From sequence record MT446421.1: DNA of 64,000 nt. One strand, 5' to 3'. Below are positions 54,558 to 63,844 of the stretch, piece after piece. This DNA is from Escherichia virus TH55. The translations under genes and the position numbers were made by a program. Position 1 is the stretch's first letter, and each line of letters begins with the position of its first letter. Below the pieces are notes generated by a model. It made no database searches, was not told the DNA's origin, and saw only the letters and a program-made list of their open reading frames with translations.

Positions 54558-55496
54558 ATGGCAACTGAATCATACAACCCGAAACAATTAAAAGATGCAA
54601 TCCTTCGACGTCTTGGTGCTCCAATTACGAATATCGAAGTTACGACCGAACAGGTCTATGATTGCATCCAGCGTGCATTAGAATTATATGGCGAATATCA
54701 TTATAATGGTTATAACAAAGGTTATCAGGCTTTTTATATCGGTCATGATGACGTTTCACAACAGAAATTTCGCGATGGTGTTTTCGATTTAAAAGGCCGT
54801 AATATTTTTGCAGTAACGCAGATTATTCGTACTAACGTCGGTTCATTAACTTCGATGGATGGTCAAGCTACATATCCATGGTTCACAGATTTTGTTCTGG
54901 GACTGGCCGGGATTAACGGTGGAATGGGTAGCTCATGTAACAGCTTTGGTCCAAATGCTTTTGGTGCAGACCTTGGTTATTTTACACAGCTTATGCAATA
55001 TCGTTCAATGATGCAAGACCTGATGGTTCCGCTTCCGGATTACTGGTATAATGACGATACTGAACAACTTAAAATTATGGGCAACTTCCGTCAGGGAGAT
55101 GTGATTGTAATTGAAGTTTATACCAAATCGTATAACGGCGTGGATTCAATGGTAGGTAATACAGCTGGATATGGTTTTGCTTCGGCCGATTGTGATAATC
55201 CGTGGAATGCTGGCGCACAGTGGGATAACCCGGCACGCAGAATAAGCGGCATGAGAGCAGGTGAGGACCTTGGACTTCAAGATGGCGCATACAACAACCG
55301 TTGGGTGAAAGACTATGCCACGGCGCTCGTTAAGGAAGTTAACGGCAACGTATTGGCTAAACACCAGGGGATGATGATGCCAGGTGGTACCACGGTTGAT
55401 GGTGTTCGTTTAATTGAAGAAGCTCGTATGGAAAAAGAACGTCTTCGTGAGGAACTTGACCTGCTGGATGCACCGACTCCTATATTGGTGGGCTAA
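54558..55496 (+). CDS. 13: neck protein gp13
   Basis: 312 aa; late promoter 54532-54539; synteny wac-13-14. Confidence 0.85.
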
Positions 55497-56281
55497 TGGC
55501 TACTTATGACGCAAGATTATTCGCCCGGCTCGAAGACGGGACCGGGTATGACAATACCAATGCTACAGAGATATTGAACCCTTATGTAAACTTTATGCAT
55601 CATGAAAATACCCAGACTTTAGCCGATGCTATTGTTGCTGAAAGTATTCAGATGCGCGGAATGTCTCTTTATTATATCCCAAGGCAATTCGTTAAACCGG
55701 ATTTGTTATTTGGTGAAGACCTCCAGAGTAAATTTGATAAAGCATGGAAATTTGCTGGATATCTGGATACGTTCGATGCATATCAGGGTGATGGTTCTAT
55801 CTTTAGTAAATTCGGTATGACTGTGAACGATGAAATTACAATATCCATTAACCCTAATCTGTTTAAACACCAATGCAATGGAACTGAACCTATTGCCGGG
55901 GATTTGATTTATTTCCCTCTTGATAACAGCCTGTTCGAAATTACATGGGTGCAACCTTATGACCCATTCTATCAGGTAGGTCAAAATGCTATCCGTAAAA
56001 TCACCGCGAGCAAATACATTTACTCCGGAGAAGAGCTTAAACCCGAATTGCAACGAAATGAAGGTATTAATATTCCAGAATTCAGTGAGCTCGATTTACA
56101 ACCAATCCACAATATCGATGGTCTTACAGATATCAGCGATATCCCTTATGCTGAATCCAATGAGATTAACGCAGAAGCAGCTGAATATGTTAAACCATAT
56201 TTTGTGCAGAATGGTCGTGGACTTGAGGCTCCACCTAAGGCAAAACAGGATAGCTTTGACGATAGTTTCTTTGATGAATAA
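55496..56281 (+). CDS. 14: neck protein gp14
   Basis: 261 aa; ATGA coupling with 13. Confidence 0.85.
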
Positions 56282-56324
56282 ATACATTTATTAATGCGCC
56301 CGAACTGGGCGCCTGGAGGTTACT

Positions 56325-57196
56325 TTGTTTGGGCATTTTTATAATTCGTCTCTGCGTCGCTATATCGTTTTAATGGGCGATTTATTTTCCCATGTACAAG
56401 TGGCCAGAACCAGAGAAGACACTGGACTTAAATATATTAAGGTCCCTATTTCTTATGCTTCAAAAGAAAAATTCATGATGCAGCTTGGAAAATGGACCGC
56501 TATTCAGAATACACCGACTCCTGACATGTCACCACAAGAACGTGCTGCTCAGAAGGCTAAAATCGAGACCATATTGCCCCGTATGAACCTACATATGGTT
56601 GACTTGATGTATAATGGGCAATATAAAACGGCTCTCCAGAATCACACACAGGCGCGATTTGCTAATAACGACCCTCGCAAGCAGATATCTCAATATTCTC
56701 CTGTACCGGTCAAAATGATTTTCGAGCTTGGAATATATACAAGGCATCAAGATGATATGTTCCAGATTATCGAACAAATCATGCCTTACTTCCAGCCACA
56801 TTTTAATACAACCATCACTGAACTTTATACGAATGAAATTACGTTCGAACGTGATATAAGAATCGTATTGCAGTCCATAGCAATGGATGAGCAAATTGAA
56901 GGTGATGCAATGACTCGTCGTAGACTCGAATGGTCCATTATGTTCGAAGTTAACGGTTGGTTATATCCACCGGTCAAGGAAGTAGCCGGGGAAATCCGTA
57001 CTATCTATCTTGACTTCTTTGCAAATTCCAGAGAGCTTGCACCGGAGGGCAATTTCGAATCTGTTGACTCGGAAGCTGTTCCACGAGACGTCGACCAAGA
57101 AGACTGGCAAGGTGAATCTGTTCAAACATATTCGCAGGATATTCCTGTACCGGTTGACCCAGCACCGCCAGCCCCAAGAAAAAATAGGGTACCACT

Positions 57197-57200
<4 letters not shown>
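56325..57200 (+). CDS. 15: tail sheath stabiliser / tail terminator gp15
   Basis: 291 aa; ORF-track start is a TTG at 56325 preceded by GGAGG (56314-56318). Confidence 0.8.
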
Positions 57201-59507
<2,307 letters not shown>

Positions 59508-61660: not shown

Positions 61661-61668
61661 TATAAATA
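61661..61668 (+). promoter_or_regulatory. late promoter TATAAATA (gene 19, proximal)
   Basis: Exact consensus about 53 nt upstream of gp19 start at 61721. Confidence 0.6.
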
Positions 61669-61720
61669 CATGCATCAGGGACGCGTTCGCGCGACCTGTG
61701 TCTATAAAGAGGATTCCTTA

Positions 61721-62212
61721 ATGGAGTTGACCGATATCACACGCGCTTTCGAATCCGGCGACTTTGCTCGCCCTAACCTGTTCGAAGTCGAAATCCCATT
61801 CCTGGGTAAAAACTTTGCTTTCCATTGTAAAGCAGCCCCGATGCCAGCAGGCATTGTAGAAAAAGTTCCTGTCGGTTACATGAACCGTAAAATCAACGTT
61901 GCGGGCGACCGTACATTTGATGACTGGACTATTACGATTTATAACGACGATGCTCATAAAGTTCGTCAAGCAATTGTTGATTGGCAAAACCTGTGTCACG
62001 GTATGACTAACGAAATCACCGGTGCAGCTCCTGCTGATTATAAGAAAACCGCTACTGTTCGTCAGTTCCATCGTGATGGTAAGACCGTTACGAAAGAAGT
62101 TGTTATTACCGGCATGTGGCCAACCAACGTTGGGGAAGTCCAGATGGATTGGGACAGTAACAACGAAATTGAAACGTTCGAAGCAACGTTCGCAATTGAC
62201 TGGTGGGAATAA
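61721..62212 (+). CDS. 19: tail tube protein gp19
   Basis: Start at M18 (MELTDITRAF, SD AAAGAGGA) gives 163 aa = T4 gp19; the ORF-track ATG at 61670 abuts the late promoter. Confidence 0.88.
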   Translation: MELTDITRAFESGDFARPNLFEVEIPFLGKNFAFHCKAAPMPAGIVEKVPVGYMNRKINVAGDRTFDDWTITIYNDDAHKVRQAIVDWQNLCHGMTNEITGAAPADYKKTATVRQFHRDGKTVTKEVVITGMWPTNVGEVQMDWDSNNEIETFEATFAIDWWE

Positions 62213-62213
62213 G

Positions 62214-62221
62214 TATAAATA
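62214..62221 (+). promoter_or_regulatory. late promoter TATAAATA (gene 20)
   Basis: Exact consensus directly after gp19 stop; followed by UUCG hairpin 62230-62247. Confidence 0.6.
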
Positions 62222-62229
62222 AAGTTATT

Positions 62230-62247
62230 ATGAGGCTTCGGCCTCAT
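62230..62247 (+). other. UUCG-tetraloop hairpin in gene 19-20 intergenic leader
   Basis: AUGAGGC-UUCG-GCCUCAU, 7-bp stem; only a short U-rich tail follows. Confidence 0.45.
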
Positions 62248-62269
62248 TTCCCAAACTTCGGAGACTCTA

Positions 62270-63844
62270 ATGGCAGGTTTTAACACAATACTAAATTTTC
62301 TTAAGCCTTGGGCTAAAGAAGATGAACAAGAATATAAGCAACAAGAAAAAAATAATTTAGAGTCAATGACCGGGCCGAAGTTTGACGATGGGGCTCGCGA
62401 AATTGAGTCACAAGAACAAAACGTCCCGTATAATGCATTGATGCAACAGATGTTCGGGAGTAATGAACCTGAAGTAAAAAATACCAGGGAATTAATTGAC
62501 ACCTACCGCAACTTACTAAATAATTATGAAGTTGATAACGCGGTGCAAGAAATTGTGTCTGATGCTATCGTTTTTGAAGACGGTAAAGATGTTGTAGCTC
62601 TTAATCTTGATGCTACCGAATTTAGTCAGAAAATTAAAGACCGAATCCTCGAAGAATTCGCGGAAGTTAATAACCTCCTTAATTTCGAGCGTAAAGGTTC
62701 TGACCACTTTAAACGTTGGTATGTGGATTCTCGAATTTTCTTCCACAAAATTATCAACCCTTCAAAACTTAAAGATGGAGTTCAAGAACTTCGTCGCCTT
62801 GACCCAAGACAAATCCAGTTCATCCGTGAAATCGTTACACGCATGGAAAATGGCACAAAAATTGTCGACGGTTACAGAGAATATTTTGTATACGATACTG
62901 GCCACGAAAGTTATTGTGCCGATGGTCGTATATATGAAGCAGGTACTAAAATAAAAATTCCTCGTGCGGCGATTGTATATGCGCATTCTGGATTACTCGA
63001 TTGCTGTGGCAAGAATATCATCGGATACTTACAACGAGCAATTAAACCTGCAAACCAATTAAAACTATTAGAAGATGCTTTAGTCATTTATCGTATAACT
63101 CGTGCCCCAGACCGCCGAGTCTTTTATATCGATACTGGGAATATGCCGTCTCGTAAAGCAGCAGCACACATGCAACATATTATGAATACGATGAAAAACC
63201 GTGTCGTATATGATGCAACCACGGGTAAAATCAAAAACCAACAGCACAACATGTCAATGACAGAAGACTATTGGTTGCAACGTCGTGATGGTAAAGCAGT
63301 CACCGAAGTTGATACACTCCCGGGTGCACAAGGCATGTCGGATATGGACGATGTTCGCTGGTTTAAGAACAACCTATATCAGGCTCTCCGAATTCCATTA
63401 TCTCGTATCCCTAATGACCAAAACAGCGGCGTTATGTTTGATGCGGGCGCGACAATTACTCGCGATGAATTGAATTTCTCTAAATGGATTAGGCAGCTAC
63501 AGAATAAATTTGAAGAAGTTTTCCTCGACCCGCTTAAAACCAACCTTATCCTGAAAAAAATTATTTCAGAAGAGGAATGGGAAAAGGAACTAAATAATAT
63601 TAAAGTTACGTTCAACCGTGATAGCTATTTCACCGAAATGAAAGACGCAGAAATCATGGAACGCAGAATCAATATGCTAACGATGGCTGAACCGTTTATC
63701 GGTAAATATATTTCGCATCAAACGGCTATGAAGGACTTCCTCCAGATGTCTGATGAAGAAATTAATCAAGAAGCTAAGCAAATTGAATTGGAGTCCAAAG
63801 AGGCTCGTTTCCAAAACCCTGAAGAAGAAGAAGAGGATTTCTAA
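62270..63844 (+). CDS. 20: portal vertex protein gp20
   Basis: 524 aa (same as T4 gp20); late promoter 62214-62221, SD GGAG. Confidence 0.93.

Follow-up and report, generated by a model that had tools for sequence, protein, structure and literature searches.

A TTG codon as the very probable start of gene 15 in Escherichia virus TH55, and recurrent start-codon switching at this gene in T4-like phages

In the structures of phage T4 the tail is capped by a hexameric ring of gp15, which binds gp14, gp3 and gp18 (PMC12929629). As tail terminator, gp15 closes off the sheath and docks the tail to the neck. Five salt bridges join gp15 to gp14 in the T4 virion, and one of them links R11 of gp15 to E227 of gp14 (PMC12929629). 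T4 gene 15 starts with ATG and has no strong upstream hairpin, whereas the locus described here has a TTG codon at the corresponding position, preceded by a hairpin. In E. coli, UUG falls with AUG and GUG in the class of codons that initiate at 10-100% of AUG, and about 3% of E. coli genes use it (bioRxiv 10.1101/063800). What these and other bacterial UUG genes have in common with the present locus is an initiation region led by a Shine-Dalgarno (SD) sequence, a near-cognate codon and the initiator tRNA. Switches from AUG to UUG are generally under strong negative selection (PMC5622118). Gene 15 of the T4-like phages runs contrary to this rule, having left AUG repeatedly.

The locus lies on a 64,000-nt stretch of Escherichia virus TH55 (MT446421.1), called the window below. 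A TTG start for gene 15 is already in the databases, but annotation is inconsistent among records. Gene 15 of VR7 (HM563683, ADR32553.1) is annotated from TTG with a product of 291 aa, and an exact-sequence look-up found this form in VR7, VR20, VR26, P479, CJ20 and many automatically called contigs. The same look-up found a 275-aa form, starting at Met17, in UPEC07 (MW250787), SP18 (GQ981382) and P8; MN01 (MT129652) and the RefSeq record of RZ (NC_070780) also start gene 15 at Met17. The initiation region of VR7 and other Gaprivervirus gene 15 sequences is identical to that of the window, and nothing material differs. SP18, UPEC07, P8, MN01 and RZ also have the same DNA as the window, with the Met17 truncation annotated on it. 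For the window the matter is thus one of annotation only, and its correct gp15 would be the 291-aa protein read from TTG. The 275-aa records are without 16 conserved residues, including the counterpart of the T4 residue R11 that contacts gp14.

Truncated annotation extends to more distant relatives. An internal codon serves as the annotated gene 15 start in RB43, Miller, Taquito, HMGUkp1, KLB25, JC03 and phiP4-3, that is, in every relative checked with an ATT start or an insert-linked TTG start. The records concerned are MG696114 (phiP4-3), AY967407 (RB43), KM236237 (Miller), PQ096441, PV683289, MW767161 and PP556864, and in RB43 the annotated gene begins only at codon 29. The TTG or ATT start was missed in these records, which costs them at least 16 conserved N-terminal residues.

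Gene 15 and its surroundings

The 451 nt around the site are 96-100% identical to 32 Gaprivervirus phage genomes (VR7, VR20, SP18, UPEC07 and others), and the window belongs to this genus, in the VR7/SP18 group of T4-like phages. The gene order 13-14-15-16-17-18 is the T4 order, and it is found likewise in VR7, SP18, T4 and CIP9. By sequence similarity, the open reading frame at 56325-57200 encodes gp15, the tail sheath stabiliser or tail terminator. It matched Pfam PF16724 (T4-gp15_tss) with E=6.8e-101 and 337 bits against a cut-off of 25, the match spanning residues 4-271 and positions 1-244 of the 245 in the model. A phmmer search of the PDB returned T4 gp15 (3j2m_A/4hud; E=5e-103), with query residues 1-285 aligned to chain residues 1-271, residue 1 to residue 1. 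The features of the region are as follows.

55496..56281, + strand: gene 14, neck protein (Pfam PF11649, E=6.2e-104), with its TAA stop at 56279-56281
56277..56284, + strand: AATAAATA, which agrees at 7/8 positions with the T4 late-promoter motif TATAAATA and overlaps the stop codon of gene 14; putative function
56296..56312, + strand: GC-rich hairpin of 6 bp, GCGCCC-GAACT-GGGCGC, found by folding, between the gene 14 stop and the SD
56315..56319, + strand: SD sequence GGAGG, 5 nt upstream of TTG
56320-56324, + strand: 5-nt spacer TTACT between GGAGG and TTG
56325..56327, + strand: TTG start codon of gene 15, presumably decoded as fMet; nearest start-type codon downstream of an in-frame TAA
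56325..57200, + strand: gene 15 coding sequence for gp15, tail sheath stabiliser / tail terminator, 291 aa, with its TGA stop at 57198-57200
56373..56375, + strand: internal ATG (Met17), from which several database records begin the gene; an internal methionine that is conserved but unlikely to be the start
57197..57688, + strand: gene 16, small terminase (Pfam PF11053, E=1.9e-72), its ATG overlapping the gene 15 stop as ATGA

On the + strand the site reads GCGCCCGAACTGGGCGC CT GGAGG TTACT TTG TTT GGG CAT. From 56279 to 56330 the layout is the TAA stop of gene 14, ATACATTTATTAAT, the hairpin GCGCCC-GAACT-GGGCGC, CT, GGAGG, TTACT, TTG and then TTT GGG CAT. Upstream, TAA at 56292-56294 closes the gene 15 frame, and no in-frame ATG, GTG or TTG comes between it and the TTG at 56325. 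The 43 nt between genes 14 and 15 are the sole real gap in this run of genes; the neighbouring junctions are tight, with TAATG at 13/14 and ATGA at 15/16.

The window and T4 proteins (PF16724; PDB 4HUD, 3J2M and later cryo-EM entries) have family, gene neighbourhood and N-terminal sequence in common. They differ in length, the window gp15 having 291 aa against 272 aa in T4. About 11 of the extra residues lie at residues 62-76 or thereabouts (window 56505-56555), and the C-terminal tail is also longer. By alignment, the extra residues 62-76 would fall in the loop 28-74, which contacts gp14 in the T4 virion. AlphaFold run on the single 291-aa sequence gave a pLDDT of 41, and the model was unusable.

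Where translation of gene 15 begins

Translation of gene 15 very probably starts at TTG 56325, giving a 291-aa protein. A preliminary description of this DNA had proposed the TTG start, and the proposal is borne out by the N-terminal alignment, the constraint on codons 2-16, the SD sequence and the conservation of the codon in 11 of 11 Gaprivervirus sequences. It had also given the N-terminus as MFGHFYNSS in a protein of the expected length; translation from TTG does yield 291 aa, which align from residue 1 with T4 gp15. The alignment with gp15 orthologues that it suggested as a check agrees, with homology beginning at the TTG codon.

The N-terminal sequence of T4 gp15 is MFGYFYNSSFRRY, and its R11 is conserved in the window. 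In 74 viral-contig loci the homologous position opens MFG[HY][FW]YNSS[LIF]RRY, and of 46 orthologous loci, 29 have ATG as codon 1. When the first 112 residues were used as a tblastn query, 1549 phage records matched, 1545 of which cover at least 80% of the query. Among the 50 matches listed, which reach down to about 30% identity, the alignment runs from query residue 1, or from residue 3-4 in three distant phages; the listed matches that start at residue 1 include cyanophages with about 30% identity.

The codons between the TTG and Met17 evolve as coding sequence. In the comparison with locus L034, 14 of the 15 codons from 2 to 16 differ, with 14 synonymous changes and no non-synonymous ones. 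The other TTG lineage (L010/L012) differs by 8-9 synonymous changes and one non-synonymous change. Compared with loci outside Gaprivervirus, codons 2-16 have an ungapped identity of 0.58-0.84 and the upstream 45 nt one of 0.18-0.44. This pattern of substitution indicates that codons 2-16 are under protein-level selection and that homology collapses upstream of codon 1.

These results bear directly on the start used in about half of the annotated relatives checked, the internal ATG at 56373. There gene 15 would begin at Met17 and encode 275 aa, the 16 upstream codons being untranslated leader. ATG is the preferred start codon, and five GenBank or RefSeq records (UPEC07, SP18, P8, MN01 and RZ) use this one. 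An untranslated leader is, however, at odds with the coding pattern of codons 2-16, which is seen even between two TTG lineages. The first 16 residues are also among the best-conserved stretches of the protein, with a mean consensus fraction of 0.90 against 0.65 overall in a 40-sequence alignment, a figure biased by a set chosen partly on these residues. A scan for consensus-like SD sequences found none in the 20 nt before Met17 (TGCGTCGCTATATCGTTTTA). A protein starting there would lose R11, which is present in the window gp15 and is a contact residue in T4, and most gene calls on raw assemblies are of 291 aa. We consider a Met17 start very unlikely. The preliminary description had placed the first in-frame ATG far inside the protein, which overstated the distance, as the ATG is codon 17 and only 16 codons in.

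Both codons might instead be used, giving long and short gp15 isoforms. TTG 56325 and ATG 56373 share one frame, UUG is the weaker start, and an SD scan sees only consensus-like sequences, leaving room for SD-independent initiation at Met17. Against a second isoform stand the lack of an SD before Met17 and the conservation of this methionine, which is just as strong in orthologues with ATG at codon 1, as expected of an ordinary internal residue. The structural paper on T4 gp15 mentions no second isoform (PMC12929629). Dual initiation seems highly improbable, and initiation at TTG 56325 is the preferred reading.

The TTG might also be a sequencing or assembly error for ATG, or the start might lie further upstream. 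For an error there is only the rarity of TTG starts: in the curated VR7 record the first 105 CDS (first 50 kb) include 3 that start with TTG and 4 with GTG. Against it, the TTG of the window recurs in ten other Gaprivervirus genomes, so that all 11 sequences read from the genus have it, and also in metagenome contig L149. Polymorphisms nearby are few within Gaprivervirus and spare the hairpin stem, the SD and the TTG codon. The sole other near-cognate codon between TAA 56292 and the TTG is CTG 56313, which is in frame. This CTG overlaps the SD and has only the hairpin before it, and the four extra residues that it would add have no counterpart in any orthologue. The chance that either an error or the CTG accounts for the start appears negligible.

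Initiation at TTG 56325 is also favoured by its SD. The duplex of GGAGG with the 3' end of 16S rRNA has a predicted energy of -10.0 kcal/mol, which ranks it with the stronger ones in a set of 39 gp15 initiation regions. The preliminary description was thus right to call GGAGG strong but put the TTG 6 nt after it; five bases intervene, and six is reached only by counting from the last G. The bare arrangement GGAGG-N5-TTG carries no weight of its own. It occurs twice in the window against 1.29 expected, with at least two matches in 37 of 100 shuffles, and we rejected it as evidence at this near-chance frequency. The argument therefore rests on its position at the conserved gp15 N-terminus.

We propose an ordinary SD-led start at a near-cognate codon. 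GGAGG (56315-56319) would position the 30S subunit, and fMet-tRNA would initiate on the UUG at 56325-56327, giving a predicted product of 291 aa that begins Met-Phe-Gly-His-Phe-Tyr-Asn-Ser-Ser. By the established methionine aminopeptidase rule, the initiator methionine is probably retained, residue 2 being Phe. UUG may be expected to lower initiation relative to AUG. The strong SD and the low copy number of gp15, six per virion, would make it tolerable. In the literature searched we found no N-terminal peptide, ribosome profiling or toeprint for any Gaprivervirus, nor any paper that deals with a non-AUG start in gene 15 or with the virion proteome of a Gaprivervirus.

Start-codon changes and mobile genes at the 14/15 junction

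To compare starts across T4-like phages, viral contigs were scanned with a pattern that is blind to the start codon, matching codons 2-7, 13 and 17-18. The 46 gp15 loci (L083-L138) had 29 ATG, 12 TTG, 5 ATT and no GTG. A replicate scan of metagenome contigs (L144-L162) gave 16 ATG, 2 TTG and 1 ATT, in the same lineages. Fitch parsimony on a neighbour-joining tree of 40 distinct gp15 proteins required at least about nine start-codon changes, and the window TTG appears from its placement to be independent of the TTG of Kanagawavirus (CIP9). Genes 13, 14, 16, 17 and 18 of these loci contributed about 110 well-aligned starts, all of them ATG once four offsets had been resolved. These four, apparent non-ATG starts in gp14 (L084, L127), gp17 (L121) and gp18 (L115), were really ATG shifted by one or two codons. 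Start-codon switching is thus recurrent and specific to gene 15.

The conserved codon 1 is ATT, preceded by a good SD, in RB43, Miller, Taquito, HMGUkp1, KLB25, phiP4-3, L103, L105 and L108. The AUU-initiated E. coli genes infC and pcnB resemble these ATT relatives only, as the window uses TTG, and there is no ground for supposing the IF3-dependent autoregulation of infC in them. Taken together, the orthologues could serve as a natural series for weak start codons in phage late genes, and for the footprints of homing endonucleases on their neighbours.

A stronger SD does not reliably accompany the weaker codons. The median SD energy was -9.35 kcal/mol for non-ATG regions against -7.3 kcal/mol for ATG regions (one-sided Mann-Whitney p=0.046, relatedness ignored). 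Only about four of seven sister-lineage contrasts ran in the expected direction, and SD compensation was rejected as a robust effect. The predicted unpaired probability of the SD and start did not differ between ATG and non-ATG regions (0.47 vs 0.48, p=0.93).

T4-like phages carry free-standing homing endonucleases of the MobE and Seg types, together with target-site immunity polymorphisms. In 13 Pseudotevenvirus/Slopekvirus genomes or contigs, the insert upstream of gene 15 and the start codon of gene 15 were perfectly associated. A MobE-type endonuclease gene directly upstream went with ATT in six of six cases (L139, RB43; L163, Miller; L164, Taquito; L165, HMGUkp1; L168, KLB25; and L160). 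An inserted ORF with a CapR domain went with TTG in three of three (L167, JC03; L091; L094). Where there was no insert the start was ATG, in four of four (L166, GuL6; L124; L110; L118). The MobE-type genes of the RB43 group have a NUMOD3 motif (HNH/NUMOD3 type), and no more than 3 nt separate their ends from the start of gene 15.

The insert classes share haplotypes of gene 15 downstream of its start codon: KLB25, with MobE and ATT, matches L118, with no insert and ATG, over that part. Substitutions in the RB43 group cluster in about 15 nt around the start codon, and they include the change from ATG to ATT. This distribution suggests target-site immunity or co-conversion.

Similar genes were found directly upstream of gene 15 in two other clades. 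In L105 (1469) an HNH MobE-like gene stops 1 nt before the ATT of gene 15, and in L108 (6888) one overlaps gene 15 by 53 nt, the start again being ATT. In the Dhakavirus-like L112 (start from 4993, minus strand) an HNH MobE-like gene overlaps gene 15 as TAATG and the ATG is kept. From these arrangements the 14/15 junction looks like a recurrent insertion site.

Mobile genes are a partial explanation of the non-ATG starts. No insert was found in the other non-ATG lineages, namely Kanagawavirus, L083/L100, L084, L095, L103 and phiP4-3. Nor did the 32 close relatives of the window have an insertion at the junction, each aligning in one piece over 99% or more of the 451-nt query. The window itself differs from the endonuclease-linked cases in having no endonuclease gene between genes 13, 14 and 15. 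The likeness to the free-standing homing endonuclease systems thus extends to relatives only, and even there L112 is a counterexample that keeps ATG. In the window, genes 13 and 14 abut as TAATG without an insert; SP18 (L002 216-851) has the homing endonuclease gene segC between them, and its gene 14 is annotated shorter.

Three causes may be put forward for the window TTG. If the 14/15 junction is a recurrent endonuclease target, the TTG might be a resistance allele or the leftover of a past encounter, which we regard as unlikely. A second candidate is neutral drift, tolerated thanks to a strong SD and a six-copy protein. The third is selection for low expression of a protein needed at six copies per virion. 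Were either the endonuclease trace or the selected down-tuning true, the window TTG would not be a neutral oddity.

The region upstream of gene 15

The sequence AATAAATA upstream of the hairpin departs from TATAAATA only in its first T, matching 7/8, and is a putative late promoter. The first T of the late-promoter motif is poorly conserved in T4-like phages (PMC1524935). Exact copies of TATAAATA precede gene 13 (54532), gene 18 (59500) and two more starts (61661 and 62214), and a related ATAAATA motif recurs at the position of AATAAATA in relatives. An active motif would put the transcript start near 56290, so that AATAAATA would act as a late promoter and the hairpin would form an RNA structure in the 5' leader.

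The 50-nt segment that contains the hairpin folds at -16.2 kcal/mol (z=-2.95). Of 38 distinct orthologous intergenic regions, 24 have a hairpin of -8 kcal/mol or lower here, with differing sequences; T4 has none. Natural variants within Gaprivervirus change the hairpin in its loop only. A search of Rfam gave no match for the hairpin. A role as an intrinsic (Rho-independent) terminator was rejected, the hairpin being followed by CTGGAGGTTACT with no T-run, and no terminator-like site was found in 55400-57800.

ViennaRNA also predicted a longer helix, pairing 56298-56305 with 56327-56334 (GCCCGAAC/GUUUGGGC), that would partly enclose the SD and the UUG. Its energy is -17.7 kcal/mol against -12.4 kcal/mol for the simple hairpin, with a pair probability of about 0.95, and the two natural variants A56303G and C56305T would both keep its pairing through G-U. 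Outside the genus no conservation of this helix was seen. The 101-nt fold around the start had no extra stability over shuffled sequences (z=-0.06), and the predicted accessibility of the window initiation region (0.49) is typical of gp15 initiation regions. Because of both results we claim no regulation from the longer helix.

The order of late-promoter motif, GC-rich hairpin, SD and start recurs elsewhere in the window, at 61661-61730 and 62214-62280. A GC-rich palindrome comes after TATAAATA at 61661, and at 62214 the motif is followed by GAGGCTTCGGCCTC, which has a CUUCGG loop.
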